Part shown: piece by piece, positions 27,304 to 60,763 of the stretch
Position numbering within the stretch: position 1 is the stretch's first letter
Layout: every line of letters begins with the position of its first letter
Assembly (NCBI GenBank): GCA_964598125.1
Contig: CAZRAG010000002.1
Location: 373 to 64,372, forward strand
Source of the DNA: an uncultured Pseudomonadales bacterium
Lineage (GTDB): Bacteria > Patescibacteriota > Microgenomatia > UBA1400 > UBA1396
Length of the DNA: 64,000 nt
Direction of reading: 5' to 3'
The notes under the pieces: generated by a model
Told to the model about the DNA's origin: nothing
Databases searched by the model: none
What the model saw: the letters and a program-made list of their open reading frames with translations, nothing else
Made by a program: the position numbers and the translations under genes

Positions 27304-27570
27304 TATATCCTCTTTCTTTATTTTCTAGGATGATCATTAGGTAAAAAAAGATCGCCATTGCTGTGGCTCTCTGACCTGGCTTAGGTTAGAGGTTGGAGCC
27401 ACCGCTAATAGCGATTTACACATCCTTATCTCGAATTATAGCAAACAACCTATAAATTGATAAGTACTAGGGATAAGTGATAAGTGTAAGAAGCTCGTAA
27501 TAAGCCTTGTTCTGTTATGAGATTACTTAGCAAAATCCCTTCAACATAATTGTTGTACACTTATTCTGTC

Positions 27571-34413: not shown

Positions 34414-37400
34414 GTGGGAGTTACCAAGCTCAAATCAGTTTCCATGCGGTCTCGTAAACGGAGATCGCTTTCTTTTGCCATTCGGCTCCCAAAGCTCCCT
34501 CAATTACTCTTACTCACAGGCCGCAAACGCTCCCGCTGGCCACTCTTAGTGGGTCTCCTCTTCTTGTTGATCGCCCTGCCCACCGCGTTTTATTTAAATT
34601 CGCGAACGCCTGAAGTCGAGGCCGCCTGGTGGAACGCGGGGTGGACGTATCGGAGGGCGATACCAATTACCAATAGTGGAAGCGAACAGACTAATTACCA
34701 AGTTGCCCTTTCTTTAGACACTCAATCTCTTGTGAGTGAAGGAAAACTCCAAGCTGATTGCGATGACATTCGCGTCACAGATGTGAATGGAAAAATCCTT
34801 CCACATTGGGTTGCAAATTGTGGAACATCATCAAGTTTAGTCTGGACAAGGATGCCACAAGTTCCCGTTTCTGGTGCCACAGCCTACATTTATTATGGAA
34901 ACGCCACAGTTGAAAGCGGCAAAACACCAATTGGCACTGAGAGCTTCCCCGCCCTCAATTGTCGAGCCATCATGGATGCTGGGGATGATTCTGGCACAAC
35001 AGCGTACTGGATAGATCCTAATAATGCCGATTTTACCGATAAATTTCAAGCTTATTGCGACATGACAAGTGATGGTGGTGGTTGGACGCTCATTGGAAAA
35101 GGTCGTGAAGGCTGGAACTGGAACAATAATGGACAAGGCACTCTTACCGACCTCGCCCAGAATCCAAACACAGCGAGTGTTGCTTTCATGCCAGCAGCCA
35201 CTATTGATCAAATTATTGGTAAAAATGTCAATTCTCTTACCGATGGGGTCCGTGTCTACCGATTCGGAGTCAACCAAGACTGGCGTTTTTCCTATCCCAC
35301 AATGACTACTTGGGATTGGGTAATGGACACAAGCAAAACGGCTACGGTGATATCTCGCTCACCCAGTTGCAGTGGTTCTACGTCTGGTAATACTCGTGAC
35401 GCCTACTGGTGTGGCGGAGGTAATGATTGCGATCGCATTTTCACTTGGGACTGGGCAAGTCATGCCTACATCAAAGGTTGGAGTGCCGGGTCCTCCTGTA
35501 GCTGCACGGCCTATGGCAGTGATGGCTGGTGCAATGCTACCGAAGGTCATGTTATTTTGCGAACCCAGGTTTGGGTCAAGGAACCCCCAGCAAACAGAAA
35601 TGGGATCTCCGCCACCTCTCCACAAGCGGAAGAAACCACCCCTGGCCCCATCGCCTACTGGAAGTTTGACGAAGGCAGCGGTACACAGGCAAAGGACAGC
35701 AGTAGCAATCAAAAACATGGCACCCTAAATACACCACCTGATTGGAAACCAGAAGAAGAATGTATCAGTGGTAAGTGTTTGTACTATGACGGCACTAACT
35801 ACGATTCCGTGAATATTGCTGATAGCGGCACGAATGATCCGCTTGATATGGGAACTAGAAGTTTTAGTATTTCATTTTGGGAAAAACCTCTTGACTATAC
35901 GTATCCCAAATCATTTTTCCCCATTAAAGATGGTAATGCACCCTATACTGACGGTGCTGGCCACGAAGGATGGTCTATTGCCGACAACTATATTGCCAAT
36001 GGCGTAAACTTCAACCTCAATGACGGCACAAATCGTATTAGTGCAACCCTCGCTTTTAATTCTGAAAATTCAACGGCTCATTTAAAAAACAAGTGGACTC
36101 ATATGACGTATGTCTTTGATCGCACAAATAACGTAGCATCCGTATATATAAATGGAGTAAAGCAGACAGCCGAAGTAGACATTTCCTCTGTAACTGGTTC
36201 AATCTCCAACTCTTCCTCGCTCACTATTGGCTACGGAACAGGCTGGAAATTTCATGGATACCTTGATGAATTTAAAATTTACCCTTTTGTTGTCACTCCC
36301 GAACAGGTGCAGCAAGACTATAACCATGGTTACTCCACCATCATTGGTCAACAAGACCAAGGTGCCCTTTCCGACGGTCTGGTTGGTTACTGGAAAATGG
36401 ATGAAGCCAGCTGGAACGGCACCAGCGGCGAAGTCATTGATAGCAGTGGGAATGGATACCATGGCACCAGTGCGAATGCCCTCTCCACGAGTGTGGGCAA
36501 ATTTAGCAAAAGTGGAAGCTTTGATGGTGTTGATGACCGCATTGATCTCCCAAACTCGATTGGTTACTCAACCCAAGTTTCCAGTTTTTCCTGGTTTAAA
36601 TCAGATGGAAATTCGCCAGGCTCACATCACATCATTTTTGGTGGTCCGGAACTTGAACTTACCGTGAGCAACGGTGGTGTGCTCAGAACGGGAGTAACGA
36701 CCAGTAGTGGTCGAACCTATTTTGATGGTGGATCAGGACTCACCGATGGCAATTGGCATCATATTGGTTTTACCTTTGATGGCTCTACCATGGTCATGTA
36801 CGTTGATGGTCGAGTTGTTAACACCCGCAATAATATTACGGGGACACTTACTTCATCCTTTTCCTATCGTCGTATTGGCCAATTCGGGAATAATACTGGC
36901 TATTTTGCCAATGGCTACATCGATGAAGTCCGTGTCTACAATCGTGCCTTAGCGACTGACGAAGTCACCAAACTCTACCAGTATGCCCCTGGTCCCGTTG
37001 GGTACTGGAAAATGGATGAGGGAAGCGGAACCACCATTGCAGATATGAGCGGGAATGGCAACACGGGTACTTTTGTAAACTCTCCCGTCTGGACCAATGG
37101 GCAATATGGACCAGCCCTCAGCTTTACCGGATCGGACTACGTAACCATCCCCTTTTCCTCAACAATCGCTAATAACTACACCGTAAGTGGTTGGATCAAT
37201 TTTACACAAAGACCAAGCGGCACAGACCCCAACCGAGCAGGAGGGATCATTGGTGGAACAGCATCACCTAACGGAACAATCGAATTCATCGCTACGTACG
37301 CCGTAAGCGGTGAAACATCCAAAATCGGTTTGGGAAGAATGTCAGATTTCTCAACTTTAGTGAGCACCGATTCATTTCCTATGAATCAATGGACGTATGT

Positions 37401-39633
37401 GACCGCTACGGTCGATGCGAATAACCAAATTACTTACTATATTAATGGCCGCAACGCTGGAACGGTTGATGGCTCTGGTCATAACCTCAATATCACGAAT
37501 CCGATAATTATTGGCGACAATGCTTGGCGAGATTTTATTGGTCAACTTGACGAGATCAAAATTTACAACTATGTTCGAACCCCTCAACAAATCGTCCAAG
37601 ACATGAATGCTGGACACCCGGCTGGTGGCAGCCCGGTAGGCAGTCAGCTTGCTTACTGGAAGTTTGATGAGGGTGGCGGGCAGACAACGGGTGATACCGT
37701 TGGTAACTATCCCGCCACACTTGGTGCCACAACTACAGCAAGCACGGACGATCCTACCTGGAAGTCGGGTTCCGAATGCAAATTTAATGGCTGTTTGAGC
37801 TTTGATGGTGGTGATCACCTAAAATTAGGAACCGTTGTTGATGGCTCAAATTCGCATACGTTTACCATGTGGGTCAAAAGCTCGGCCGCTATTAGTGGAG
37901 AGAAATTTTTATTCGATATTAATCCAGTGAGAACCGTCATTGGCTGGCATCGAACTGGTGGAAAGATTGCCTACTACGATGTAAGTGGCTGGCACGACTC
38001 AACGCTTGATCCGCCAAATGATGGCCAGTGGCACCACCTGGCATATGTTTTAGATGGAACCACCAACAAAGGGGCCATTTATATTGACGGTAAGCTTCGC
38101 CAAGAAAACATTGCCTATAATCCCACCACATTCAATGGACCAGCCGCCATTGGAGCTCGTTACGATGCCACGGCCTACTGGTTCACTGGCTACTTGGATG
38201 AATTTAAGATCTACTCCTCTCCCCTCACTGCTGAACAAATTCTCATTGATATGAACCAAAACCAGGCTATGAACTACGGTGCCGGTGGCGACAGTGAGGC
38301 CGCTATTATGACTGATGGTGCTGGCAATCCTCCCGTTGGCGAATGGAAGCTCGACGAAGGCACCGGCACCGTGGCCAAAGATACCAGCGGCAACGGCAAA
38401 GACGGCACCCATAACGGCGGTGGCTGGGGCATTGGCAAGTTTGGCAACGCGGCAGATTTTGATGGGAACGACCTTATTAGTGTTCCCAATATGACTGGAT
38501 TAGGAAACACCAGTTTTACTTTGCAGGGATGGATAAATGTCAGAAGTCAGCCAACAGTTTACTCTTCTATGGTCATCTCTTCCTCTGGTGGCTTTGTTCT
38601 TTACATCAACCAAAGTACACCCTATCCAAGAGCTCAGATGTATAACGGAACAAGTTGGATTGGTATAGCTTGCAATACCTTTACCACAAACTTTAACGAA
38701 TGGAATCATTTAGCACTTGCCTATGACGAATCAACCACTTCCATGACCTTGTACTACAACGGCCAAAAGTGTTCCGGACCGACAACGGTTACCGGTGGAT
38801 TTAATGACAGCTACACCACAACCTTTCAAATTGGAGCCTACACAGGATCATATCTGCATGACGGCTTGGTCGATGATGTGAAAGTCTACAACTACGCCCG
38901 CACGCCCGGACAAATTGCCTATGACTACAATCGCGGCAAGCCTGTGGCCCACTGGAAGTTTGATGAGTGTGAAGGCGGAACCATCCACGACAGTAGTGAA
39001 AATGGTAATCATGGAACTTGGAGTGGGGCTGGCGGAGGGACACAAACGAGTGTGGGTACGTGCTCAACCAGTGGTACAGCCTGGGGAAATGGCGTGAGTG
39101 GGAAATATGGAGCAAGTTTGAATTTTGACGGGACGGATGATTATGTGGATGTAAATACAAATCTCAGTACTATCCCCTACACAATTTCTGGTTGGATTAA
39201 ATATTCCGGATCACTCACAACGCCAGGGTTCGTTTCCTTTACCGATTCAAATGGCCGACGACGAGATGTCTACATTTATAACAATAATATGCTTCGCATC
39301 TTTACCTATGATGGATCAAATGCCAGATATTACGTGAGTCCCACGATCAAGTCTTTCAATGATAATCAGTGGCACCATATTGTTGGAACTTTTGATGGAA
39401 CAACTCCTTATGTATACGCCGATGGCATTCGCTATTCAGTATCGACTCCTGTTTCGGCAGGTACATATCCGACTGGAAAAATCAGAATTGGCGCACTCAA
39501 TATCTCTCCTATGACTTCCCAATATTATTTCTCGGGCCAAATCGATGACGTCCAGATCTACAACTATGCCCTTTCAGCCGACCAAGTCAAGCAACTCACC
39601 AACGAAGGTTTTGCCACCCGGTTTGGGGAATAG
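34414..39633 (+). CDS. giant surface protein 1 (1739 aa): basic N-region with signal anchor, DUF2341-like 'WWNAGWTYRR' module, then multiple LamG/concanavalin-A-like domains
   Basis: GTG start 6 nt after a TATACT hexamer. Recurrent LamG_3-type domain endings 'LDE(F/V)KIY...', 'DEVRVYNRALATDEV' and 'YNYARTPGQIAYDYNRG'. Paralogous to the next three genes. Confidence 0.85.
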   Translation: MGVTKLKSVSMRSRKRRSLSFAIRLPKLPQLLLLTGRKRSRWPLLVGLLFLLIALPTAFYLNSRTPEVEAAWWNAGWTYRRAIPITNSGSEQTNYQVALSLDTQSLVSEGKLQADCDDIRVTDVNGKILPHWVANCGTSSSLVWTRMPQVPVSGATAYIYYGNATVESGKTPIGTESFPALNCRAIMDAGDDSGTTAYWIDPNNADFTDKFQAYCDMTSDGGGWTLIGKGREGWNWNNNGQGTLTDLAQNPNTASVAFMPAATIDQIIGKNVNSLTDGVRVYRFGVNQDWRFSYPTMTTWDWVMDTSKTATVISRSPSCSGSTSGNTRDAYWCGGGNDCDRIFTWDWASHAYIKGWSAGSSCSCTAYGSDGWCNATEGHVILRTQVWVKEPPANRNGISATSPQAEETTPGPIAYWKFDEGSGTQAKDSSSNQKHGTLNTPPDWKPEEECISGKCLYYDGTNYDSVNIADSGTNDPLDMGTRSFSISFWEKPLDYTYPKSFFPIKDGNAPYTDGAGHEGWSIADNYIANGVNFNLNDGTNRISATLAFNSENSTAHLKNKWTHMTYVFDRTNNVASVYINGVKQTAEVDISSVTGSISNSSSLTIGYGTGWKFHGYLDEFKIYPFVVTPEQVQQDYNHGYSTIIGQQDQGALSDGLVGYWKMDEASWNGTSGEVIDSSGNGYHGTSANALSTSVGKFSKSGSFDGVDDRIDLPNSIGYSTQVSSFSWFKSDGNSPGSHHIIFGGPELELTVSNGGVLRTGVTTSSGRTYFDGGSGLTDGNWHHIGFTFDGSTMVMYVDGRVVNTRNNITGTLTSSFSYRRIGQFGNNTGYFANGYIDEVRVYNRALATDEVTKLYQYAPGPVGYWKMDEGSGTTIADMSGNGNTGTFVNSPVWTNGQYGPALSFTGSDYVTIPFSSTIANNYTVSGWINFTQRPSGTDPNRAGGIIGGTASPNGTIEFIATYAVSGETSKIGLGRMSDFSTLVSTDSFPMNQWTYVTATVDANNQITYYINGRNAGTVDGSGHNLNITNPIIIGDNAWRDFIGQLDEIKIYNYVRTPQQIVQDMNAGHPAGGSPVGSQLAYWKFDEGGGQTTGDTVGNYPATLGATTTASTDDPTWKSGSECKFNGCLSFDGGDHLKLGTVVDGSNSHTFTMWVKSSAAISGEKFLFDINPVRTVIGWHRTGGKIAYYDVSGWHDSTLDPPNDGQWHHLAYVLDGTTNKGAIYIDGKLRQENIAYNPTTFNGPAAIGARYDATAYWFTGYLDEFKIYSSPLTAEQILIDMNQNQAMNYGAGGDSEAAIMTDGAGNPPVGEWKLDEGTGTVAKDTSGNGKDGTHNGGGWGIGKFGNAADFDGNDLISVPNMTGLGNTSFTLQGWINVRSQPTVYSSMVISSSGGFVLYINQSTPYPRAQMYNGTSWIGIACNTFTTNFNEWNHLALAYDESTTSMTLYYNGQKCSGPTTVTGGFNDSYTTTFQIGAYTGSYLHDGLVDDVKVYNYARTPGQIAYDYNRGKPVAHWKFDECEGGTIHDSSENGNHGTWSGAGGGTQTSVGTCSTSGTAWGNGVSGKYGASLNFDGTDDYVDVNTNLSTIPYTISGWIKYSGSLTTPGFVSFTDSNGRRRDVYIYNNNMLRIFTYDGSNARYYVSPTIKSFNDNQWHHIVGTFDGTTPYVYADGIRYSVSTPVSAGTYPTGKIRIGALNISPMTSQYYFSGQIDDVQIYNYALSADQVKQLTNEGFATRFGE

Positions 39634-39665
39634 GGAGAGAGGTTAATCAGGGGAGGATTGAATTC

Positions 39666-39733
39666 CTTGAGTAAGGAGTATCCTTGCTCAAGCCAACTCA
39701 ACTTCACTTGAGCAAGGATACTCCTTCTTTTTT
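39666..39733 (+). terminator. family-B palindromic element copy (20-bp stem 'AAGGAGTATCCTTGCTCAAG...CTTGAGCAAGGATACTCCTT' followed by CTTTTTTCG). Acts as a rho-independent terminator after giant gene 1.
   Basis: Read directly. Related copies at 45133-45186, 57565-57623 and 60700-60763. Confidence 0.75.
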
Positions 39734-39748
39734 CGCTACAATGGCTAA

Positions 39749-42700
39749 GTGGGTGTGCGCAAAATCCGATCAGTATCCGCTAAGCGATCCAGAATAGGGT
39801 CTTTTCCCCGTCATTTTTTTTCTTTCCCCAAGCTCTCTTTTACCAATAAACGCTCCCGCTGGCCGCTCCTTATTGCTCTGCTTATTATTCTCGGAGCCAT
39901 TCCGGCCGCCATTTTTCTCAATTCCCGAGCCAAACCGGTAGCCGCCACTTGGTGGAACGCCAGCTGGCAGTATCGGCAGCGGGTGGATATTACCAACGCC
40001 AATGCCTCGGCTCTCACCGATTTTCAGATCAGTTTCAACCTGGACACGGAAACTCTCATAACCGCTGGGAAATTGCAATCAAACTGTTTGGATCTTCGCG
40101 TAACGGATAATCAGGGACAGGAAATTCCATTTTGGATCGAAGAAAATAATCCCGGATGCAACAATGCGGCCACAAAAATCTGGGTCAAAGTTCCCCAAGT
40201 TCCCACTTCTGGAAGCACCATTTATGTTTACTACGGGAATGCAACGGCAACAGCCGCGGTAAATAATGATGGCAACAAAGTTTTTGAGTTTTTCGATGAT
40301 TTTAACGGCAGCGCACTTAATGCAGCCAAGTGGCAAGACTGGTTCACCACCGCTTCCACCAACACCTACACGCAATCGGCTGGTGTACTGCAAATCACCA
40401 CGAGTGGTTGCAACAACGGTCTGCGAACAAAAAATCTTAACCAATCCGACGTACGGATTCGCACGCGCATGATTGGTCAAAGTGATGCTGGTTTGCTGGC
40501 TCGCGTCACTGATAACGACCATCTCTATCTCATGCGAACCGATATCGGAACCGCCGCCACCGACTACTACCTTCGCAACAGCAGTTGGACCAGTCTTGGT
40601 GGAATTTTCACTGATTTTGGAGACTGGAGTGTTTTTCGCATTGTTGAATTCAGGGTCGTTGGCACAGCCCTTTCTTCTACCGTTGACGAACAAACTATGA
40701 ATAGCATCACCAACACCACTTTTACTTCTGGTGGCATTGGCTTGCGCAAATGTGGTGGAAACCCAAGTTTTGACTGGATCGTGGTCGCGAAGCCCGCTTC
40801 ATCGGAACCGACCTCAACCCTCGCCACCGAAGAAACCACTCCCGGCCCCGTGGTAGAACTCAAGTTTGACGAAGGCGGCGGTTCGCAGGCCAAAGACAGC
40901 AGTGGCTTTAAAAATCATGCCAGTGTCCCCAGTTCAACGCAGTGGAAATCCGACGATGAATGTATTTCGGGCAAATGTCTTTTCTTTGATTCCACCGATG
41001 ACCGAATCATCATGTCCAATAATCAAACACTGAACAACACGAAACAACTCGGTTTTAGTTTCTGGTGGAAACCAATGGGGTATCACACAAATTACGCCTA
41101 TCAAATTCTGCGCAAGTTTAGCGGAACCAGTGATGCTAACCTGGCACTCTACTATTTTGGTGACTACAACGGCACATATCCTGAAAACAAAGGTCGCACT
41201 ATGGTTTATGGAACTGCCGGAGGGGCTTGGAAAGGTATCTCCAATCCCTACACCTTTTCCGAGGCAGAACTGGGACAATGGCACCACATTGCGTTTTCCT
41301 ACGATTCTGTTTTGGGTGGTCAACTGTATGTTGATAGCAAACCCGTTGGCGGGCGAACTGGTTCAGGAGAACTGTCAGTTAATACCTATGATCTGATTCT
41401 TGGCTCCGGTTCTATGGCCCAGTACTATGACGATTTTCGCTTCTACCCCTACGCCATCACCCAAGAACAAGTCCTGAAAGACTTCAATCGCGGTTCGGCC
41501 GTGATGATTGGTGCGCAGGAACAAGGAGCGCTCACCAATGGCCAAGTTGGCTACTGGAAGATGGATGAGACTACCGGCACAACGGTTGCTGATTCATCAG
41601 GATTTGGCAACCATGGCACGCTGCTTGGTGCACAAGAAACCGGTACAGCCGAAGCGGCCAGCACCACCACAACTGTCGTTGATACCGCAAGCACCGCCCT
41701 TTCAACCGTGAATGATGCCTACAACGGACAGTATTTGGTAATAACCGGAGGTTCTTGCGGCATAAGCACCAATACTTTTGGGACCATCACCGACTACGAT
41801 GGCACCACCAAAACCCTCACTGTTAGTCCGGCCTTAAGTGCGCAAGTCGATGGCTGTACTTACCAAATCCGCCACCAAAATGCGGGTAAATTCGGCAACG
41901 GCCTAGGCTTTGACAGTAAAGATGACCGAGTCCAAATTGGCAGCTCCACCCAGTTTGATTTGAGTAGCGGTGACTTTGCTCTGGCCTCCTGGATCCGTCA
42001 AACTGGCACCCAAGATTTGCGAAAAATTTTCTTTAAGGGCAACCCTTTTTGTGATGCCTGTGAAGCTGGATATTTTCTGGGCGTTCATGCGGGCAGTCCC
42101 CGTTTCTCTGTCGATTTGAGCAGCAACACCGGTGACATCAAATCGGTCTACAACAACAGTATCTTAGTGAATGATGGCCAGTGGCACCACATTCTGGGAC
42201 AACGAAAGGGCGACATGCTTGAACTTTGGGTGGATGGCTTGCAAGTGGCCACCCTGGCATTACCAACTGGAGCTACTATCAACTACGGCGCGGCATCAAA
42301 TCTGATTATTTCCGATGCTTCCTATGCATTTGATGGTTCTCTGGATGAAGCGCGTATTTTTTCGCGCTCTTTTTCTGCTGATGAAATTGGTAATTTATAC
42401 CGCTATGCTCCCGGACCTACCGCGCACTACAAATTGGACGAGGGTTCAGGCACGACAACCATTACTGATTCCTCCGGCAATAATAATTCTGGCACCATGA
42501 CCGGCTTCGCCGCCAGCTCCTGGGTTCCTGGAAAATTTGGTAAAGCACTCACGTTCTCTCGCAGCACCAGCACACGCATCGATCTGGGCACGCTCTTTAC
42601 CAATGTTTCTACGGGTTTTTCTGGTTCCGTCTGGATAAAACGCAGTGGCACCGCCTACAACAACGACCCTTTGGGAAATAAAATCTACACGGGGAACAAT

Positions 42701-45133: not shown

Positions 45134-45186
45134 AAGGAGTCTCCCTGATCGAGTGCCTTTGGGTTCTCTTGATCAGGGAGACTCCC
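45133..45186. repeat. family-B palindromic element copy ('GGAGTCTCCCTGATCGAG...CTTGATCAGGGAGACTCC'), followed at 45205 by a degenerate 'TGATAAACCTCTCTCC' flank motif
   Basis: Read directly. Confidence 0.7.
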
Positions 45187-45719
45187 TATCCAAGCAACCT
45201 CTTTCTTGCCTGATAAACCTCTCTCCCTGGTTAGAATCTTGTCAGTTTTTGGTTGTATGTTACTTCTGTGACGTCAAGGTCGTTCATTATTCTTTCAAAG
45301 GTCCATGTTGTTTTTGAAACATTTCAAAACGCCCTTCTTCATCCATCAGTAGCAAAAGTACTCGGTGAAAAAATCATTGAACTGGGAAATCTTCTCCTTA
45401 TAGGTTTAGTCGTTACCGAAATCCTCCAAATAAACATTCGAGCTACGCCTATTAGTATGGGATTCATCGGATTTTTACTATGCTACACTTTGGGTGTGCT
45501 CATTCTGAGAAATGGAAAGGAGACACCATGACACTCTTTGGCGAATCACTCAATTTCTACATCATTTTTGGTGGGCTTTATTTGTTTCTTGGAGTCATGT
45601 TTCTCTTGGTTCTCACAGGCAAGAAAAAGAAAAAATAACTTCTTTTCTCACAGCACACTTTCACTTTTGAGTTTTCCTTCTCTGTAGTCCGTCCCACATA
45701 ATTCCACTACAATGACTAG

Positions 45720-48700
45720 GTGGGAGTTACCAAAGTTCGATCAGTGTCTGCCAGGCGAGCAATACCAAAAATTGGCTGGCCTTTTAGCAGATTTTCATTT
45801 CGACTGCCAACGCTCACTTTTACAAAAAAGCGTTCTCGTTGGCCCCTCCTTGTCGCCCTTCTTTTTCTCCTCATTGCCCTTCCTACCGCGTTCTATCTCA
45901 ACTCCCGCACTCCAAAAGTCGAAGCTGCCTGGTGGAATCCTGGGTGGGCGTACCGTCAGCGAATTGCCATTACCAATAGTAACGGGAGCGACTTAACCGA
46001 TTTTCAAGTCAGCTTTACCCTTGATACTGCTGCTCTCATTACCAACGGCAAACTGCAAAATGATTGTGATGATCTGCGAATCACCGATCATCTTGGAAAA
46101 GAACTCCCGTTTTGGATTGAAGAAAATAATCCTGGCTGTAACAACTCCGCTACCAAGATTTGGACCAAGGTACCAAATATCCCCACCAGTGGCGCCGCTC
46201 TGTACGTGTACTACGGCAATATCTCCGCTACAAATAACGAAAAAGGAAATGAGGTTTTTCCTTTTTTTGATGGTTTTAATTCTGCTGCCCTAAACACACA
46301 AATTTGGGGGAACACCGGAACTTATAATTTTGCTTCAGGTGCAATCACCGTAACAGCTGGCGCGGTGTACTCAAAGTCAACCATCTTGTCGACCAACCAA
46401 AACTACGTGTATGAAATGCGCAGTAAATGGGCGGCTGGTGGCAGTCAGTGGGCGGGACTCGATATTGCGAGTACTCAAAGCGTCTTAAGTAGCAACAGCG
46501 GCGCCAGTGCCTTGACTTTCTTCATGACGCTCAACGGCACACCAACTTTGGGAGCATACGTTTCGTCAGGTGTCTCTGGCTATAACGTGACCGGTGGGAC
46601 ATCACAATTTACCACCACTCCTAATACTTACGAAGTCATTGGCTACACGCACACACCAACTACGTTAAGTTTTTATCGAAATCAAACCCTTACCAATTCG
46701 TATTCCGACACTGCCAACTTTGCCCCGTATGTATGGCTGGGCTATTTTATGGGAGCGGGTTCGGGTTCGCAGGACATTATGGACATGACGGTTGACTGGG
46801 TCCGTGTCCGCAAGTATGCCGCTACCTCTCCCGCCACCACTTTAGCGACGGAAGAAAGTACCCCTGGCCCAGTCGCTCACTGGAAATTCGACGAGGGTGG
46901 TGGCAGCGCCATCAAAGATAGTAGTGGCAATAATCGAACTGGCACCCTTTCCAACGCCACTTGGTCAACAGGTGATTGTGTAAGCGAAAACTGTCTCCAA
47001 TTCAACGGGACCAATGGTTATGCCGATACCGGTTATGACTACAGCATGGAATACAACTCCAGCACAAGTTTTTCGGTATGGATCAGACCGTCAACCATCA
47101 ACACCGGCGGAAAAGTCAAAACGATTTTGGGCAAAGTGAGTTATGAATACATTCTCTCGCAACTTGATGACACAATTATGTTCCGCCAATGGACTGATTC
47201 TGGCAACGACACAATTGCGATCCAAACACCGAGTATTTTGGAAGCAAATCAGTGGTATCAAATCACCCTTGTGTATGATGGGACCGCTCACACTACCAAT
47301 CTGTATGTGAATGGTACTCTGCAAGCGAGTGGCGCCAACTTGCAACCGTCGTTTGTGAACCGAACCGAGACATTGAAAATAGGCTATGGGTATGGTTGGA
47401 ACGTTTCACCCACACCCTATTTTTCCGGAAAAATTGATGAGGTAAAAATTTTTCCCTATGCTCTTACCGCTGCTCAAATTAAAAAAGAGTTGAACTTTGG
47501 ATCAGCCGTAACCGTGGGCTTTGAAAACCAAGGGAGTCTGGGCGAGGGTTTAGTGGCTTATTGGCCCATGAACGAAACTACTGGCACGACCATCGCCGAT
47601 TATTCTGGCAACAATGCCACGGTGACACTCACCAACGCCCAAGAGACCGGCACCAGTGAAGCGGCCGGCACCACTACTCTTGTAGTCGACGCGGATAACG
47701 CAACCATTTCCAACTATGACGATGCCTATAACGGCATGGTTATGGAGGTTACCGGAGGAGCGGGTTGTGGGATAGGATCTGGTTCAAGCAATCGGATTCG
47801 CTTTATCACTGATTATGTTGGTGCAACAAAGACCTTTACCGTGGGCAGCGCCTTTCCCGCCGAAACCGATAACTGTACTTTTCAAGTTTTGCATCAAAGT
47901 CGTGGGAAATTTGGAGGTGGAGTCTACCTTGATGGTGTGAATCATGAAGGTGGCAACGACACTATGGAACTCACGGATATTCGTTTTGATTCCGATGATC
48001 CTTGGTCTTACTCGGTTTGGCATAGAATTCCCGCTGGCTCAACGGTTAACTGGAATAGTTTTTTTGGTGGACCCCAAAGTGGTTATGGTGGCTACTGGCA
48101 GTACCATGGCGGTGGCAATCTCATGTGGTATCAAGATTACTACGAGAGTACGGTGTATGGAATCAACGATAGCGTCGTGAATTTTGGAGATGAATTGCCC
48201 TACGACAAATGGTTCATGCTAACGCTCACCTATACGCCCACTGATACCTTGCACGGTACGGCAAAAATTTATGTCGACAGTGAGCTCGTGCATTCAAGAA
48301 GTGTCACGCTCAGTGCTCGTACCACCTACTTTACCGTGGACAAACTTGCGGGGGCAGGTGGGCGATCTTTTGAAGGCCATATGGATGAGGCCCGTTTATA
48401 TAACCGTGTACTGGCCGACAGCGAAATTGTTAATCTCTACCGCTGGGCACCAAAACCAAAAGCCTACTATCCCCTTGATGAGGGTACCGGGACAACCACG
48501 ATCGACAAAGGCGGTGGCACCAGTGTCACTGCGAGTAGCACCACCTGGACCGCTGGCAAATATGGCCAGGCACTGCATTTTAATGGCACAAGCTCAACAG
48601 TGGACATTCCGAATATTTCCCACCCCTATGCGTTTACCAAAATGGCTTGGGTCAAAATTCACGCCGCTGACTGTGTTAACGAGAGTCGTTGTTCTATCTT

Positions 48701-51065: not shown

Positions 51066-51077
51066 AAAGACAAGCAT

Positions 51078-51165
51078 TCAGGAATATCTTCGCACACACT
51101 TTAGCCTGGAAGGATATTCCTAGGAATATCCTTCCAGAGGAAAACATTGGTAAAGATATTCCTTG
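51078..51165. repeat. nested palindromic element, family A, copy 2, lying between giant genes 3 and 4
   Basis: 'TCAGGAATATCTTC...CCTGGAAGGATATTCCTAGGAATATCCTTCCAGAGG...GTAAAGATATTCCTTG'. Confidence 0.8.
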
Positions 51166-51204
51166 CACGTAGTCCACGTATGGCAATTCCTTTACAATGA
51201 ATGG

Positions 51205-54200
51205 GTGGGAGTTACCAAGTTACAATCAGTCTCGGTGCGCCGCCGGCAAAGCAGGCGGCGAGGGTTTCGGGCATTCCGACTTGCTGGTTTTCGATTTCCC
51301 AAAGTCCCCTTTTCGTTACCCCATTTGCTAACCAACAAACAACTCCTTAACCCACGCCGTTCTCGTTGGCCGCTCCTTTTGGGCATTTTGTTTTTACTGA
51401 TTGGCATTCCGACAGCATTTTGGCTCAACTCCCAAACAGAGGAGGTTGCCGCCTGGTGGAACCCTGGCTGGATGTACCGCCAACGTGTCGATATCACCAA
51501 TGGCAGCGGCAGTAATTTAACTGATTTTCAAATTGGCTTTACTCTCGACACCGCTGCACTCATCACTGCTAGCAAACTACAAAATGATTGTGATGACCTA
51601 CGAATTACTGACCATCAGGGGACTGAACTCCCGTACTGGATTGAAGAAAATAGTCCTGGTTGTAATAATGCTGCAACTAAAATTTGGGTGAAGTTACCTT
51701 CAATTCCAACAAGTGGTGGATCATTCTTTCTGTACTACGGAAATGCTCAGGCTATAAAGTCGGCAGACCAAAATGGAAACAAGGTTTTTGTCTTTTTTGA
51801 TGATTTTTCAGCCACTTCCATCGACGCCTCAAAATGGACACAAGGAACAATCGCCGCCACCTCTGGAACAAATTTTTCTATTTCATCAGGCAAGCTGATT
51901 GGCGGAAATACGAACCGCTACATTCAATCGGTCAACACCTTTACAGGTGATTACATAGCCGAGACTAGGGTTTATGAAACAACCGCTGCCAATAATGGGT
52001 TTACCAGCATCGGCTTTTATGCTTCTTCGAGTAACACCATTAGCATCCTTAACCATAGCGGAACATTTTATGTACGAAACGACTCCGCTTGGCCAAGTTA
52101 TGGAAGCTACACAAAAGATCAATGGGAACACGACAAAATTAAAGTCGTTGGAACAACGGCCACACTCTGGAAAGTTGGAGAATCGTCGGGTTCGCTCACA
52201 GGATCCCCAACAAATAGCGGAATTAGTGGCGAGTACTTTCGAATTGGTCCTCGTGGTGATGATGGCGCATACAATCAAAATTATTCTGCCTCTTGGGACT
52301 GGGTGTATGTGCGCAAAGCCGTCACAACCGAACCTTCAACCTCACTCCAATCCGAAGAAACCACCCCGGGACCCGCCGCCTACTGGAAGCTCGATGAGGG
52401 AAGTGGAAGCACCATCAAAGATTCGGTCAACAATAACACCGGTACCATCAATGGCGCCGAGTGGAAACCGGAAACTGAGTGCGTTTCCGGAAAATGTCTC
52501 TACTTTGATGGCACAACTGACTTTGTTTCGGTGGCCAATAACAAAACGCTTAACCCCACTGAACAACTCTCTGTTTCCTTGTGGGTGAAAAATCAGCGAG
52601 CCACTGGCAAACATACCTTTTTACTCAAAAAGGCCAATGGGGTTGGCGGCTATGGCTTTTATTTAACAACCACGGACACTCTCAGTTTTTTTGTGTACTA
52701 CTTTTCGGGTAGTCCTAACTATCAATTTTGCGAAATTCCTGCTTATACCCTTCCCAAAGATCAGTGGACCCATCTCACTGGCCAGTTCAAGACCAATGAT
52801 TTCCTTAAAATTTTTGTAAATGGCGTAGAAAAAGTAAGTTGTGTCCCCAGTCAGAGCACCAATCTTGGCGTTGATACCAGCACTTTAAATTTGGGATACC
52901 AAGGGTGGTGGGGAGCAGACAATGCTTACTTTAAAGGATATCTCGATGAAATAAAAATCTTCCCCTACGCCCGTACTCAGGAACAAATTCTGCAGGACTA
53001 CAACCTTGGTTCAGCAGTGGCAATTGGTCAGCAACAGCAGTCGTACATGAGTGAAGGCTTAGTGGGCTACTGGAAAATGGATGAAGCCAGTGGCACCACG
53101 GTAGCCGATGCCTCCGGCAATGGACGAACCGGCACCCTCACCAACGCCCAAGAAACTGGCACCGGCGAAGCGGCTGGAACAAACACAACGCTGGTAGATG
53201 CTGACAATACGGCACTATCCGCCGACGACGATACCTATAACGAAATGATTCTGGAGGTTACTGGTGGCGTTGGCTGCGGTATTGCTATCGGGCAAAAAAG
53301 GTTCATCTCTGACTATACCGGATCCACCAAGACTCTCACTGTTTCCTCTGCCTTTACGGCCGAAACCGATAGTTGTACTTTTTTGATTGACCATCATGGC
53401 ACCGGCAAGTTTGGTTCTGGATTGGCTTGTTCCGGAAAATCTTCTGGAGCAAATAGCGGTGATTTTGTGAGTGTTTCTCTTCCCAGCATGAATGAAGTAA
53501 GTGCCTTTACCTGGTATAAATTTCACCCACGAGGAACTGGCTCAAACACCATTATGCGCATGCAAAATGATGACATTGGAATAACCATCAATCCAAGCGG
53601 CCCGTCGCGTTTCCACATTGACTCATATGCCACGCTCTTTTCCTACATCGATATTCCCAATTCAGCTGATGGAAATTGGCATTACATTGGCCTCACCTAT
53701 GACGGCACCACTATGACGGCTTACTTTGATGGCCAAGCCATTGGCACGAAAACAGGAAGCTACAGCATCGCCGCTGGAACCATGAATATTGGTGATCGTA
53801 GCGACGGCTATGGAGAACATTTCAATGGCTGGATTGACGAAACGCGCGTCTACAACCGCGCCCTCAAACCAGACGAAATAGCCAGCCTCTACCGGTTTGC
53901 ACCAGGTCCAGTGGGTTACTGGAAAATGGATGATGGCAGTGGGAGCACCGCTACCGACAGTTCCGGCAATGGCAACAATGCCGCCCTCGACGGTTCGACC
54001 TATTGGCGTGATGGAAAGTTTGGAGGATCTCTCCTCAATAGTTTTTCAAGTGGGTCGGATGGAGTTATCACCCAGACCGCAATCTTAAATCCTCTCGCTC
54101 CAAATCTGACTGTTGAAGCCTGGTTCAAGGTGAACGCCTACAACGCTACCCACTGGCAAACCATTGTTGAAGGCAGTGGAAGTCTCAATGCAGGTACAGG

Positions 54201-56556
54201 CTATTACCTTGGCTTCCCACCAGCATCAAGTACTAACCTTTACTGGCGGGTGGGTAATGGTACCGTCTTCGACGCGGACATCAACTACGCGAATCACGGA
54301 ATTCAAGTTGGCGATTGGGTCCATGTCGCCGGAACTCTCGGGCCAACGACTGCCAAAATGTATGTTAACGGAAAACTTGTCAAGACGGATCCCCACACCA
54401 TTTTCAATATCGGATATGGCGTCTATCCCATTACCATTGGCAGTCTCTCCTATGCAACAGGCGCCCACACTCTTGACGGTTTGATCGATGAAGTCCGCAT
54501 TTACAACTACGAACGAACGGCTCAGCAAATCGTTGAAGACATGAATGCTGGCCACCCCGCAGGCGGAAGTCCCGTGGGAAGTCAACTCAGCTATTGGCCT
54601 TTTGATGAGCAAAATGGAACAGTTGCTCACGATCGTACCCAGACACAAAATCTCACCGTTACAAGCGCGAGCTGGAAATCTCAATCAGACTGCAAGGTGA
54701 ATGGCTGTTTGGACTTTGACAACGGCGTAGCTGGCAGTACCGCTTATTTCGATGACACGACCGCCAGTATTTATGATCTCACGAACGATTTTACATTTGG
54801 CGCCTGGGTGTATCGAACAGGCACACCAGAATCCCAAGCCAGAATTATTAGCAAAGGAGACCGATATCTTTTATACACAACCAATACCAATATTGTGCAG
54901 TGTCACATGCAGGGGCTTACGCCGACAGCTCTATCTGCAACATCTGCTCTGCCACTCAACTCATGGACTCATGTACTGTGTACGTACAAAGACAATGTCC
55001 GCAAACTCTACATTGATGGTGTCCTCAATGCACAAGACGCTCCCACCGGAACCATGACTCCTGATGATCTTGACCTGGTCATTGGTAACTTTAGTACACC
55101 AGGTGATAGTTATCGTTTCCGGGGAAAGATTGACGAAGTAAAGCTCTATTCTTCTGCTCTCACAGCGGAACAGGTTAAACTCGAAGTGAATCAAGGCTCT
55201 TCGGTGGCTTATGGAGGAACAACAAGTGAAGCCTCCGATTTAAGTGATGGAGCAGGCAATCCGCCGGTCTTGGAATGGAAATTTGACGATAAAACCGGCA
55301 CCTCGGTTACCGACACCAGCGGTAATGGCAATAACGGCAGCATTGTTTCGACACCGAGCTGGAAGTCGAGCAGTTCGTGCAACGAAGGATCTTGTCTCGA
55401 ATTTACCTCAAATTCCCAGTATGTTACGGCTGCCGACCCTGGCACCAGTGTTCTCGATATTACCGGACCAGTAACTCTGGAGGCTTGGGTATGGTGGGAT
55501 CAGTTCAAGGATTACGGTGTTGTTGCCAATAAAGGAAGCGGAGGCACAGCCGCAACATTCAACTATGGTATCTGGTCATATTCAACATCGATAAACTGTT
55601 TTATCGGCAATGGTACAGCAACCAATAGCTTGGGATATAACGCTGCCCTTGTTAGTACTAATGCTTGGCACCATCTTGTGTGTGTCGCTGATGGAACAAA
55701 TCTTTCCATGTATATTGATGGCAAACGAGTAACTCAAGTGGGCCAAACAGTCACTCCCGCCGCTAACAATGCAGCCTTTATTGTGGGAGAAAATGGTCGA
55801 TCAGTTGATGGGAAAATCGATACTGTTAAAGTCTACAACTACGCCCGTACTCCCGCCCAAATCGCCTATGATTACAACCGCGGTACACCTATCGCCCACT
55901 GGAAACTCGATGAGTGCCAAGGCACCACTCTCAACGATAGCAGTGGCAACAACTATTCCGGAACCTGGAGCGGCAGTGGCGGCACGCAAACCTCAGCCGG
56001 CACCTGCACCACCGCCAGCACCGCTTGGGGAAATGGTGAGTCAGGAAAGTTTAATGGGAGCCTTAATTTTGATGGTACAGATGACAGGATTTCGATTCCA
56101 GGTGCCACAAATATCACGGTAGGAAATGATATTACCGTTTCGGCCTGGGTAAAAACCACAGCTTACTCTCAAGAACCATTTGTCAGCAATCGGTCTGGGG
56201 CTGGTGGCCGAATGTACTTTGGTTTGGGTTTGGGGAAAGCCTTTTTATATTACAGTGGTGCATCTCCAGCAGGAGTCAACGGGACAGCTCGCATTGACGA
56301 CAACGTTTGGCATCACGTAGTTTATGTCCGTTCAGGCACAACCACTACGCTCTATGTAGATGGAAAACAGGATGCCACAGCCACTCAGACTGGTGTTGGT
56401 GCATATGCCGACACCATGTATGTTGCTCATGATGTAGCCAATAATGAATATTATCCTGGACAAATTGACGACATCCAAATCTTTAACTACGCCCTTTCGG
56501 CTGATCAAATCGCCAAACTCTATAATGGCAGTTCGGCTGTTCGTTTTGATGATTAA
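51205..56556 (+). CDS. giant surface protein 4 (~1783 aa from the GTG start), DUF2341-like + multi-LamG paralog
   Basis: 'WWNPGWMYRQRVDITN' DUF2341-like signature, then LamG repeats. The conserved GTGGGAGTTACCAAG start lies 6 nt after TACAAT, and the ORF-track ATG at 51163 is upstream of that promoter. C-terminal module 'YNYARTPAQIAYDYNRGTPIAHWKLDECQG'. Confidence 0.85.
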   Translation: MGVTKLQSVSVRRRQSRRRGFRAFRLAGFRFPKVPFSLPHLLTNKQLLNPRRSRWPLLLGILFLLIGIPTAFWLNSQTEEVAAWWNPGWMYRQRVDITNGSGSNLTDFQIGFTLDTAALITASKLQNDCDDLRITDHQGTELPYWIEENSPGCNNAATKIWVKLPSIPTSGGSFFLYYGNAQAIKSADQNGNKVFVFFDDFSATSIDASKWTQGTIAATSGTNFSISSGKLIGGNTNRYIQSVNTFTGDYIAETRVYETTAANNGFTSIGFYASSSNTISILNHSGTFYVRNDSAWPSYGSYTKDQWEHDKIKVVGTTATLWKVGESSGSLTGSPTNSGISGEYFRIGPRGDDGAYNQNYSASWDWVYVRKAVTTEPSTSLQSEETTPGPAAYWKLDEGSGSTIKDSVNNNTGTINGAEWKPETECVSGKCLYFDGTTDFVSVANNKTLNPTEQLSVSLWVKNQRATGKHTFLLKKANGVGGYGFYLTTTDTLSFFVYYFSGSPNYQFCEIPAYTLPKDQWTHLTGQFKTNDFLKIFVNGVEKVSCVPSQSTNLGVDTSTLNLGYQGWWGADNAYFKGYLDEIKIFPYARTQEQILQDYNLGSAVAIGQQQQSYMSEGLVGYWKMDEASGTTVADASGNGRTGTLTNAQETGTGEAAGTNTTLVDADNTALSADDDTYNEMILEVTGGVGCGIAIGQKRFISDYTGSTKTLTVSSAFTAETDSCTFLIDHHGTGKFGSGLACSGKSSGANSGDFVSVSLPSMNEVSAFTWYKFHPRGTGSNTIMRMQNDDIGITINPSGPSRFHIDSYATLFSYIDIPNSADGNWHYIGLTYDGTTMTAYFDGQAIGTKTGSYSIAAGTMNIGDRSDGYGEHFNGWIDETRVYNRALKPDEIASLYRFAPGPVGYWKMDDGSGSTATDSSGNGNNAALDGSTYWRDGKFGGSLLNSFSSGSDGVITQTAILNPLAPNLTVEAWFKVNAYNATHWQTIVEGSGSLNAGTGYYLGFPPASSTNLYWRVGNGTVFDADINYANHGIQVGDWVHVAGTLGPTTAKMYVNGKLVKTDPHTIFNIGYGVYPITIGSLSYATGAHTLDGLIDEVRIYNYERTAQQIVEDMNAGHPAGGSPVGSQLSYWPFDEQNGTVAHDRTQTQNLTVTSASWKSQSDCKVNGCLDFDNGVAGSTAYFDDTTASIYDLTNDFTFGAWVYRTGTPESQARIISKGDRYLLYTTNTNIVQCHMQGLTPTALSATSALPLNSWTHVLCTYKDNVRKLYIDGVLNAQDAPTGTMTPDDLDLVIGNFSTPGDSYRFRGKIDEVKLYSSALTAEQVKLEVNQGSSVAYGGTTSEASDLSDGAGNPPVLEWKFDDKTGTSVTDTSGNGNNGSIVSTPSWKSSSSCNEGSCLEFTSNSQYVTAADPGTSVLDITGPVTLEAWVWWDQFKDYGVVANKGSGGTAATFNYGIWSYSTSINCFIGNGTATNSLGYNAALVSTNAWHHLVCVADGTNLSMYIDGKRVTQVGQTVTPAANNAAFIVGENGRSVDGKIDTVKVYNYARTPAQIAYDYNRGTPIAHWKLDECQGTTLNDSSGNNYSGTWSGSGGTQTSAGTCTTASTAWGNGESGKFNGSLNFDGTDDRISIPGATNITVGNDITVSAWVKTTAYSQEPFVSNRSGAGGRMYFGLGLGKAFLYYSGASPAGVNGTARIDDNVWHHVVYVRSGTTTTLYVDGKQDATATQTGVGAYADTMYVAHDVANNEYYPGQIDDIQIFNYALSADQIAKLYNGSSAVRFDD

Positions 56557-56626: not shown

Positions 56627-56854
56627 ATGACCCATCGAACAAATTCCCATGAGGGAAACAAACCCCTGTTAAAAGATTCCAGCTTCTGGACCCAAGTTGT
56701 TTTGCCCCTCCTTATGGCTGCGGCCGCTGGAATAGGCATTGGTAAAATCGCCGATGATGCTGGTCGGAGGTGGGAACAGGAAATGCAGTCTCGTAATGAG
56801 GCTGTTAGTTCTCCCGCTGATGTTCAGCCACCAAGCTCGGTTGATATGCGATGA
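56627..56854 (+). CDS. possible small membrane protein. Weak call.
   Basis: 75-aa ORF with a hydrophobic 'VVLPLLMAAAAGIGIG' stretch. Confidence 0.25.
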   Translation: MTHRTNSHEGNKPLLKDSSFWTQVVLPLLMAAAAGIGIGKIADDAGRRWEQEMQSRNEAVSSPADVQPPSSVDMR

Positions 56855-56951: not shown

Positions 56952-57167
56952 AGAGCTTGCTCGCTCATTTCAGCATAACTTCGTTACTGGCTGATTCGCT
57001 GCGCTTCCTCAGATAGTTGAGCGTAATGCGCCTCGCGGTATCAGTTTCTCTTTCGAATACCCGCTCGTGTGCATTACTTTGCTCAAGTATCGAACTCGCC
57101 TACGGCTGAATTCACCTCCAGCGGGATTCACAAACAAAAAATCCGCCCATGGCGGATATTTCGTTTG

Positions 57168-57240
57168 TGGACCCAAGGAGATTCGAACTCCTGACCTCTT
57201 CATTGCAAATGAAGCGCTCTACCAACTGAGCCATGGGCCC
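57168..57240 (-). tRNA. tRNA-Ala (anticodon TGC)
   Basis: Acceptor GGGCCCA with a G3:U70 pair, anticodon loop 'TTTGCAA', T-loop GGTTCGAATCC. 73 nt, CCA not encoded. The terminator hairpin 'ATCCGCCATGGGCGGAT' + T-run follows on the minus strand. Confidence 0.85.
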
Positions 57241-57377
57241 AACCACCGAGTTGTTCTTTTAGATATTTTCTCTTTTTGACAAAATCTAAAACAATTTTCT
57301 TCTCCATCAAAGTTTTTACTTTACAACGAATCTCAAGGCTTTAGCCTTCGTGAGGTGTAAGGGGAAAACTTTGATTG

Positions 57378-57451
57378 TGAGAGTACCTGGACTCGAACCA
57401 GGGACCTCTGTCTTATCAGGACAGCGCTCTAACCAACTGAGCTATACTCTC
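57378..57451 (-). tRNA. tRNA-Ile (anticodon GAT)
   Basis: Acceptor GAGAGTA/TACTCTC, anticodon loop 'CTGATAA', T-arm CCTGG-TTCGAGT-CCAGG. 74 nt. Confidence 0.85.
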
Positions 57452-57564: not shown

Positions 57565-57623
57565 AGAGTAAGGAGTCTCCTTGATCGAGAGTGCCTCTCG
57601 GCCCTCGATCAAGGAGACTCCCT
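57565..57623. repeat. family-B palindromic element copy ('GAGTAAGGAGTCTCCTTGATCGAG-loop-CTCGATCAAGGAGACTCC')
   Basis: Read directly. 17-bp perfect stem. Confidence 0.75.
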
Positions 57624-59411: not shown

Positions 59412-59413
59412 GT

Positions 59414-60699: not shown

Positions 60700-60763
60700 G
60701 GAAGGAGTCTCCTTGATCGAGGGTGCTTGAAGACACTTGATCAAGGAGACTCCTTACTCAGAG
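60700..60763. repeat. family-B palindromic element copy ('AAGGAGTCTCCTTGATCGAG-loop-TGATCAAGGAGACTCCTTACTCAGAGG'), followed at 60778-60794 by the flank motif 'CTGATCAACCTCTCTCC'
   Basis: Read directly. Confidence 0.75.

Follow-up and report, generated by a model that had tools for sequence, protein, structure and literature searches.

What do four giant, strongly diverged genes standing head to tail in the genome of an uncultured bacterium encode, and how did they come to differ so much? The question is raised by a stretch of 64,000 nucleotides (nt) of contig CAZRAG010000002.1 (assembly GCA_964598125.1), hereafter the window, to which all coordinates refer unless another contig is named. In it an earlier note, made from the sequence alone, had described four paralogs with a DUF2341 block and multiple laminin G-like (LamG) domains. 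We call the four genes P1 to P4 in their order along the forward strand. The reading that we favor, and hold to be probable, is that they encode exported modular lectin-type proteins of about 190 kDa, which serve attachment or recognition and have been diversified by cassette-type replacement of domain cores.

The four head-to-tail open reading frames (ORFs) are indeed present on the forward strand (Table 1), and all motifs quoted for them earlier were recovered in the four proteins. P3 is identical to database protein P0001 and P4 to P0003, which is present in both NCBI and Logan assemblies. Pairwise amino acid identity among P1 to P4 is 35 to 40% and varies periodically along the proteins, from 50 to 70% at the domain junctions to 12 to 20% in the domain cores, which bears out the picture of whole-length homology, strong divergence, and conserved linkers. 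LamG cores in matched positions (38% identity) are nearly as diverged as LamG domains in different positions (31%). At the DNA level, conserved stretches of the paralogs are 60 to 80% identical and the longest exact matches span 16 to 27 nt; the copies are therefore old duplicates that have not been homogenized, and cross-assembly of paralogs does not explain them. Assembly chimerism or artifact was rejected because of the same shortness of exact identity. Independent assemblies of related metagenomic contigs (L001/L002 and L006-8; relatives are labeled L plus a number) recovered the same arrangements, which supports the assemblies.

Behind the signal-type N terminus, each protein consists of a DUF2341 block, a second domain (D2), and a series of LamG domains. 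The DUF2341 block proposed for all four paralogs was matched by Pfam (PF10102) at 45.4, 82.2, 71.5, and 83.3 bits in P1 to P4, against a gathering cutoff of 23.4. Motif mapping placed exactly six LamG domains (L1 to L6) behind DUF2341 and D2, and Pfam Laminin_G_3 (PF13385) matched six stretches per protein with 387 to 466 bits, which makes them members of this family. Thus, the lectin-type folds predicted earlier are real, whereas the proposed count of seven to nine LamG domains has to be lowered to six, plus one further concanavalin A (ConA)-like domain in P2 to P4. The latter is D2, a noncatalytic jelly roll resembling ConA and glycoside hydrolase family 16 (GH16), with 12 to 18% identity to GH16 enzymes; the GH16 catalytic motif ExDxxE is absent from D2 and the remainder of all four proteins, and no glycoside hydrolase family of Pfam matched. 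D2 of P1 is of a different kind: it was matched by Pfam Fibrinogen_C (PF00147; 26 to 31 bits, cutoff 22), by COLFI (34 bits), and by the NCBIfam model GGGWT_bact (NF040941; 51 bits, cutoff 30), and its sequence matches in the PDB are tenascin, fibrinogen, angiopoietin, and intelectin (E value of about 3e-4). Only about 55 N-terminal residues of it align to solved fibrinogen-related domains, the remainder being rich in Cys and Trp. An insertion near the start of L2, for which no Pfam family matched, further sets P2 to P4 and relatives apart from P1.

The way in which these proteins diversified becomes apparent from syntenic arrays of metagenomic relatives. L001 and L002, the ENA and JGI assemblies of one contig, contain the C terminus of a P2 ortholog, the small membrane ORFs described below, a P3 ortholog (L_A), and a P4 ortholog (L_B), as well as tRNA-Ala/Ile and the flanking Cys-rich protein (70% identity). 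L005 contains the C-terminal 936 amino acids (aa) of a P3 ortholog, the P4 ortholog P0004, and the same flank, also at 70% identity; L019, from the same sample as L005, carries a PGK and an amino-acid kinase 93% and 92% identical to those of the window. Between orthologs, the identity of the modules is bimodal, either 67 to 92% or about 20 to 35%. P3 and L_A share 69% identity in DUF2341, 79% in L1 and in L2, and 67% in L3, and only 31% in D2, 28% in L4, 32% in L5, and 35% in L6, with junctions of 73 to 86% identity. P4 and P0004 are similar up to L2 (DUF2341, 86%; D2, 82%; L1, 77%; L2, 75%) and dissimilar from there on (L3, 29%; L4, 27%; L5, 31%; L6, 47%). For P4 and L_B the values are 21 to 36% from DUF2341 to L5 and 70% in L6, and for P2 and the fragment on L001 they are 92% in L5 and 35% in L6. 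P0004 and L_B, in turn, are about 80% identical in L3.

This patchwork is reticulate, as a three-taxon test of P4, P0004, and L_B made clear, in which sites are counted where just two of the three sequences agree. From DUF2341 to L2, 352 sites group P4 with P0004, 30 group P4 with L_B, and 18 group P0004 with L_B; in L3 the corresponding counts are 7, 6, and 66, and in L6 they are 11, 58, and 6. The groupings are incompatible between segments (chi-square of 541, p of about 1e-115). Identity switches abruptly, at points of the conserved LamG framework that follow the "FDGxDD" strand and precede "GxIDEVxIYN", and the replaced cores differ by many indels throughout. Shared segments have a nucleotide identity of about 72 to 75%, equal to that of flanking genes. 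Since synonymous sites are saturated (proportion of synonymous differences of 0.63 to 0.78; dS saturated or undefined), dN/dS could not be calculated, and dN, the nonsynonymous divergence, was compared by itself: it amounts to 0.13 to 0.16 in retained modules versus 0.20 to 0.21 in the neighboring secreted protein. As judged from these alignments, the retained modules are under purifying selection. Because identity is bimodal, breakpoints are sharp, sharing is reticulate, and retained modules have a low dN, we conclude from the sequences that a LamG core stays conserved until recombination at the joints exchanges it as a whole. The earlier expectation of cores made hypervariable by point mutation under a high dN/dS does not fit these values; that of a strongly diversified family does, with whole-core replacement between conserved framework segments and gene gain and loss as the means.

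Several modules of the giants have counterparts in family members to which they are otherwise unrelated. The L6 core of P3 is 70% identical to a core in P0010, the L1 core of P1 is 67% identical to one in P0022, the L5 core of P1 is 65% identical to cores in P0013 and P0014, and D2 of P2 is 65% identical to that of P0009. The L2 core of P1 is 62% identical to the core of the last domain of P0029, where it lies between L6-type flanks, that is, in position 6 instead of position 2.

Variation extends to whole genes. The slot that houses the array, bounded by the amino-acid-kinase gene and tRNA-Ala/Ile, differs in content in every genome examined: it holds four giant genes in the window, at least three in L001, at least two in L005, and none in L020 and L013. 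L020 has the order kinase, 318-aa protein, tRNAs, and HD gene. In L013, whose PGK and kinase are 83% and 88% identical to those of the window, an 85-codon 3' remnant of a giant gene, with stop codons interrupting it upstream, ends in "...GQLDDVQIYNYALSSEQVAKVYNQGSSIRFG" ("...AKVYNQGSSIRFG"); because this remnant is the C terminus of a giant gene, the array has been deleted there. A more distant relative (L006-8) carries two giant genes beside its GAPDH and PGK genes, and a contig of 1.41 Mb has a single one next to a Peptidase_S74 protein. With four, at least three, two, one, or no copies, the array is not static among related genomes.

Table 1. Coordinates of the array genes, their modules and signals, and neighboring features in the window
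Feature	Position	Strand	Description
P1	34414..39633	+	1739 aa; signal-type N terminus, aa 1-70; DUF2341, ~aa 71-180; fibrinogen-like GGGWT D2, ~aa 175-405; six Laminin_G_3, aa 412-1728
P2	39749..45133	+	1794 aa; signal-type N terminus, DUF2341, ConA-like D2, six Laminin_G_3 (aa 367-1783)
P3	45720..51065	+	1781 aa; signal-type N terminus, DUF2341, ConA-like D2, six Laminin_G_3 (aa 384-1770)
P4	51205..56556	+	1783 aa; signal-type N terminus, DUF2341, ConA-like D2, six Laminin_G_3 (aa 390-1772)
D2 of P1	34936..35628	+	"YCDMTSDGGGW" fibrinogen-related, Cys/Trp-rich; replaces the ConA-like D2 of P2 to P4
DUF2341 and D2 of P3	45918..46844	+	small 7-strand beta-sandwich; GH16/ConA-like jelly roll without GH16 catalytic motif
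L2 insertion (P3)	47625..47909	+	~95 aa, near start of LamG-2; in P2, P3, P4, and relatives, absent in P1
-10-like box of P1	34402..34407	+	TATACT, 6 nt 5' of GTG; stop codon abuts GTG
-10-like box of P2	39737..39742	+	TACAAT, 6 nt 5' of GTG
-10-like box of P3	45708..45713	+	TACAAT, 6 nt 5' of GTG
-10-like box of P4	51193..51198	+	TACAAT, 6 nt 5' of GTG; same layout at the P4 ortholog in L001
Terminator-like element behind P1	39673..39733	+	perfect inverted repeat, 20 bp, and T-run; 3' of P1, adjoins P2 promoter; read from the sequence
Terminator-like element behind P2	45134..45187	.	palindromic; 3' of P2; repeat family also at 57570-57623 and 60702-60755
Terminator-like element behind P3	51105..51138	+	perfect palindrome; 3' of P3; read from the sequence
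Small membrane ORF	45253..45531	+	92 aa, two hydrophobic helices; inside array; 80% identical in L001
Small membrane ORF	45528..45638	+	36 aa, one transmembrane helix and KKKKK tail; 93% identical in L001
Small membrane ORF	56627..56854	+	75 aa, single transmembrane helix; 3' of P4; L001 72%, L005 48%
Upstream island gene	32912..34219	+	signal peptide, Cys-rich region, C-terminal two-helix segment like type IV secretion system (T4SS) pilin (below Pfam threshold)
tRNA-Ala and tRNA-Ile	57167..57451	-	conserved right border of array slot in all related loci
Two variable surface-protein genes	57666..60694	+	581-aa Cys-rich secreted protein; 426-aa protein; both absent from L013 and L020

Are these proteins exported, and if so, in which form? 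The N termini of P1 to P4 share one order, namely a basic tail of 36 to 58 aa, a hydrophobic segment of about 20 aa, about nine residues ending in AxA, and "WWNxxWxYR". Among 59 family members, Ala occupies position -2 relative to the first Trp in 58, and Ala, Val, or Thr occupies position -4 in 45; the hydrophobic region ends earlier, by a median of nine residues. At the level of motifs, the proteins thus display the parts of a cleavable Sec signal peptide, with a basic n-region, an h-region of about 20 aa, and, in 58 of the 59 members, Ala where position -1 would be. Because AxA before "WWN" matches the pattern of a signal peptidase I site, the helix appears to be part of a cleavable signal peptide, of the long Gram-positive type, and not a signal anchor; of the signal-anchor helix described earlier, the Sec-type N terminus stands, while the anchor gives way to the more likely conserved AxA cleavage site. 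The mature protein would probably begin at "WWNxxWxYR" after cleavage at AxA. Neither a prepilin (class III; G/FTLIE-type) nor a Tat (twin-arginine) motif was found in P1 to P4. All four C termini stop inside the last LamG domain ("...RFGE", "...KFNN", "...RFGN", and "...RFDD") and lack the LPXTG of sortase-anchored adhesins, and LPXTG anchoring was rejected for the giants on this ground. In all four paralogs (34414-34540, 39749-39850, 45720-45830, and 51205-51360), as well as in L_B of L001, a long basic tail that starts with MGVTK(L/V/I)xSVS stands before the helix; the n-regions of more distant members of the family are short.

The start of P4 deserves a comment, since its ORF is open from a TTG at 51163 (1797 aa) and from the conserved GTG at 51205 (1783 aa). 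The start "GTG GGA GTT ACC AAr" (VGVTK...) is common to P1 to P4, with changes mostly at third codon positions, and in P1 to P3 a stop codon lies immediately 5' of the GTG. Because the paralogs share this stretch, and because P0003 likewise has 1783 aa, the GTG at 51205 is the likely start, not the TTG.

By aligning the upstream regions we found a TAyAmT box exactly 6 nt 5' of the GTG in all four genes, with no Shine-Dalgarno sequence; a scan for the sigma-70 consensus had missed these boxes. Given that each gene has its own promoter box and that strong hairpins lie behind P1, P2, and P3, the four genes are probably transcribed independently, as leaderless mRNAs. The arrangement "cTACAAT-N6-start", again with no Shine-Dalgarno sequence, is also found at the genes for IMPase (17931, reverse strand), GAPDH (29685, reverse strand), and the HD protein (60810, forward strand), and the sequences suggest that leaderless mRNAs, GTG-initiated ones included, are common in this organism. 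The palindrome behind P2 belongs to a repeat, AAGGAGTCTCCyTGATCGAG...CTTGATCArGGAGACTCCyT, with seven arm matches against 0.1 expected and a half copy at 12730-12746; it is located 3' of genes and resembles a shared terminator, and two of its copies are followed by "CCTGATnAACCTCTCTCCC" and a -10-like box.

Three small membrane ORFs lie within or behind the array. With 80%, 93%, and 72% identity in L001, they are conserved better across related arrays than are the giant proteins, for which they may be partners or tethers. L001 has, in addition, an 84-aa paralog of the 92-aa ORF, located between its two giant genes.

The organism is probably a member of the candidate phyla radiation (CPR): the named relatives of its PGK come only from the "Patescibacteria group" (44 to 47% identity) and Woesebacteria (41%), and the family of the giants is found in Patescibacteria; the weakly T4SS pilin-like C terminus of the upstream neighbor points in the same direction. 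Full-length relatives of the same architecture (1650 to 1820 aa) occur in Moranbacteria, Collierbacteria, Levyibacteria, Shapirobacteria, Roizmanbacteria, and WWE3. If they bear a name at all, it is "DUF2341 domain-containing protein"; the family, widespread in Patescibacteria, is uncharacterized. P1 to P4 belong to it with no essential difference, as the known giants of Candidatus Moranbacteria RBG_13_45_13 and Candidatus Collierbacteria RIFOXYB1_FULL_49_13 have the same architecture and size. At the same time, when about 15 billion proteins are clustered at 90%, each of the seven giants examined is a singleton, and a scan of genome contigs with P3 returned only two distant partial loci. The DUF2341 profile as such found 11,164 representative proteins at E values of 1e-10 or below, and DUF2341 is often repeated, in up to 21 copies within proteins of up to about 7,800 aa. 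In the literature, DUF2341 figures as a predicted component of type IV pilus-like systems, and LamG/concanavalin proteins of CPR and DPANN organisms are presumed, without experiments, to be attachment factors or adhesins. Short proteins with signal, DUF2341, and D2, or with DUF2341 alone, occur among the contigs L022, L033, L035, and L067, which are classified as viral; the one on L022 (positions 1330-2658; IMGVR_UViG_3300035698_025530) has 442 aa and is 36% identical to residues 22-403 of P3. LamG_3 matches are also found in phage virion or tail proteins, e.g., of Synechococcus phage S-PM2, all viral matches being below 40% identity.

Taken as a mechanism, the reading that we favor would run as follows. 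Each gene would be transcribed from its own leaderless-type promoter and end in its own hairpin, and the product would be exported by its Sec-type N terminus and probably cut at the conserved AxA. The mature protein would be a row of eight beta-sandwich modules (DUF2341, the variable D2, and six Laminin_G_3), most likely a multivalent binder of glycans or glycoconjugates that other cells or particles display. Diversification would proceed by recombinational replacement of whole LamG cores (about 130 to 170 aa) rather than by point mutation, with breakpoints in the joints between modules, namely conserved framework strands and linkers. The donors would form a large, mostly unsampled pool, a core could change its position in the repeat, and whole genes would be gained and lost in the island between the amino-acid-kinase gene and tRNA-Ala/tRNA-Ile/16S. 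We favor attachment or recognition because eight folds of carbohydrate-binding type in a row on an exported protein fit multivalent glycan recognition, and because the way in which the proteins vary is consistent with selection for binding specificity or on their being recognized; the driver may be host range, or pressure by phages or predators.

Several points weigh against this reading. No ligand-binding residues were identified, and cleavage of the signal peptide is predicted from a motif. P1 to P4 have neither LPXTG nor a C-terminal transmembrane segment, which leaves no recognizable anchor after the predicted cleavage to account for a hold on the surface, and they could be released. Donors of most replaced cores were not found, the best matches being 55 to 70% identical for some cores and below 40% for others. 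Here the search with L3 to L5 of P4 listed only proteins of up to 1118 aa and missed P4 itself, so the absence of close relatives is weak evidence. With at most 16 to 27 nt of exact identity in the framework, recombination between the copies that this genome now contains is unlikely, and core replacement is documented between genomes only, not within a clone. Finally, L005 and L019 are treated as one genome on the grounds of their shared sample.

Could the giants instead be structural or shielding proteins of the envelope, similar to an S-layer, which vary because phages or predators exploit them as receptors? Escape from such receptor use would also yield presence/absence and module replacement, the proteins are large beta-sandwich repeat proteins of an abundant type with Sec signals, and DUF2341 and LamG_3 domains are known also from viral contigs and phage virion or tail proteins. 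Still, we consider this unlikely. Pfam and NCBIfam detected no S-layer homology or cell-wall-binding domain, the lectin-type folds (ConA/GH16-like and fibrinogen-like) indicate ligand binding, and the array is missing at this locus in close relatives, so that it is no essential envelope component there. Quite improbable is a role as accessory or tip components of a type IV pilus-like filament, comparable to MJ1470-type DUF2341 proteins or TafC. The giants carry no prepilin (class III) signal, and no pilus assembly gene is found among the 42 scanned ORFs of the window; the description of DUF2341 as a predicted component of type IV pilus-like systems, which would speak for such a role, as would the pili by which CPR cells attach, loses force because DUF2341 is an internal repeat in thousands of giant proteins, in up to 21 copies, and thus a generic module with no pilus-docking signature. 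The NCBIfam model of TafC, a protein modeled at the fimbrial tip, does match the LamG domains (NF052521), but with 140 to 171 bits against a cutoff of 410 and over profile positions of about 149 to 363 only, that is, the LamG part.

A further explanation, which we rate a shade lower still, would make the proteins secreted enzymes that degrade or scavenge polysaccharides, in keeping with the "glucanase" side of the ConA-like superfamily. The missing ExDxxE motif in all four, the low identity to GH16, and the lack of a glycoside hydrolase match in Pfam argue against it, as does P1, which has a fibrinogen-like lectin domain in place of D2. That the variable cores arose by hypermutation in situ or strong positive selection, for instance through a diversity-generating retroelement, is hardly credible: the nearly equal divergence of position-matched and different-position cores would be expected, but not the bimodal identity, the sharp breakpoints, and the indels throughout replaced cores, nor the reticulate pattern by which the same domain is kept in one genome pair and replaced in another. 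In addition, no reverse transcriptase was found among the scanned ORFs of the window, there is no template/variable repeat pair and no repeat above about 83% identity in or near the array, and the retained modules evolve slowly. Pilus context, TafC membership, GH16 catalysis, and a diversity-generating retroelement were each rejected on specific tests (signals, cutoffs, motifs, and repeats).

Replacement of cores in exported lectin-type proteins, the reading that we prefer, is set in a neighborhood that is itself variable. The earlier note had placed the array in a cell-surface island, and its flanks do encode mostly secreted or anchored proteins; however, two tRNA genes and a cytoplasmic HD-domain gene interrupt the island. 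Because the content of the slot varies and the genes for the 581-aa and 426-aa proteins are missing from L013 and L020, the surface island is a hotspot of gene turnover. Only the C terminus of the upstream island protein is conserved in L019, and a scan of metagenome contigs with the 581-aa protein returned only the contig already known. The 426-aa protein (59414-60694) has an N-terminal transmembrane segment and, at its C terminus, LPQAG, a hydrophobic stretch, and RR, which together form a sorting signal of the sortase type; none of the scanned ORFs of the window was recognized as a sortase gene. Toxin-antitoxin pairs lie directly 3' of the array in L001 (Gp49/HTH, 13087-13750) and L006 (PIN/MazE, 20311-20972); the window lacks such pairs. 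Its rRNA operon is split: the 3' end of the 16S gene, tRNA-Ile, and tRNA-Ala follow in the usual rrn order on the reverse strand (57167-57451 and 63700-64000), with a gap between 16S and tRNA-Ile of 6.2 kb that is filled by forward-strand genes (581 aa, 426 aa, HD, and 640 aa), and no 23S gene lies behind tRNA-Ala in the window. The HD gene likewise separates the tRNAs from 16S in L013 and L020, and a LAGLIDADG ORF lies close to the 16S end of L013. Upstream of the array, ORFs for products of 332 to 706 aa had no Pfam match (13232-14230, 15662-17170, 18644-20503, 23081-27303, and 27550-28563); the product of 25222-27303 shares no more than 30% identity with the 697-aa protein encoded at the corresponding place in L006.

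How does this locus compare with known systems of modular variation? Phage tail fibers and tail spikes are mosaic receptor-binding proteins that are exchanged module by module. As in these, conserved joints flank exchangeable binding modules in the giants, and LamG_3 and DUF2341 are found in viral contigs and phage virion or tail proteins; in contrast to these, the genes of the window are cellular, with Sec signals and among housekeeping genes, and viral matches stay below 40% with no shared cassettes seen. Cassette-based surface variation is known from Anaplasma Msp2, Borrelia VlsE, Mycoplasma genitalium MgpB/MgPar, and Neisseria pilE/pilS, with which the array shares a conserved framework around a replaced core and clustered related copies. 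However, its four copies are full-length, each with its own promoter, where such systems have a single expression site, and no silent cassettes are seen within the 64 kb covered here; also, whereas those systems have near-identical flanks, the flanks here are 60 to 80% identical with at most 27 nt of exact match.

TafC is the tip protein of haloarchaeal Tat-fimbriae, and MJ1470-type DUF2341 proteins are encoded in archaeal type IV pilus loci (PMC11821415, PMC4858521). A Laminin_G_3-type domain in TafC and DUF2341 in MJ1470 have each been proposed as a distal adhesive module, which is where the likeness lies; the proteins of the window differ in that their N terminus lacks both a donor-strand or pilin-like domain and a Tat or prepilin signal, and in that pilus genes are absent nearby. 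To fibrinogen-related lectins (ficolin, tachylectin, intelectin, and GGGWT_bact proteins) P1 is linked by the hallmark "YCDMTSDGGGW" segment, but it aligns over about 55 residues only, and its domain is embedded in a giant with LamG repeats. In outline, the DUF2341/LamG family and its presumed adhesive role are already known. The literature that we searched contained no description of a four-gene array, of cassette-type LamG core replacement with transfer across positions and array loss, of a swappable D2 head, including the fibrinogen-like version, or of probable signal peptide cleavage.

How ultrasmall CPR/Patescibacteria recognize and hold their hosts is largely unknown beyond a few cultured Saccharibacteria, and LamG giants are routinely listed as "possible adhesins" without deeper analysis. 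The present locus shows that such giants occur in tandem sets, that modules of binding type are exchanged as whole units, at defined joints, whereas those retained are conserved, and that the whole set can be lost. It is tempting to speculate, although we regard this as doubtful, that the DUF2341/LamG giants are a combinatorial recognition system of CPR episymbionts, in which cores are swapped across genes, positions, and lineages by way of universal joints. If this was the case, the set of cores that a cell carries would determine the hosts or particles it binds, just as module exchange sets the host range of phage tail fibers. Single LamG cores and D2 heads are concrete, expressible candidates for determinants of specificity, and the interval from the amino-acid kinase to tRNA-Ala/Ile offers a marker locus for tracking the evolution of host range in metagenomes.

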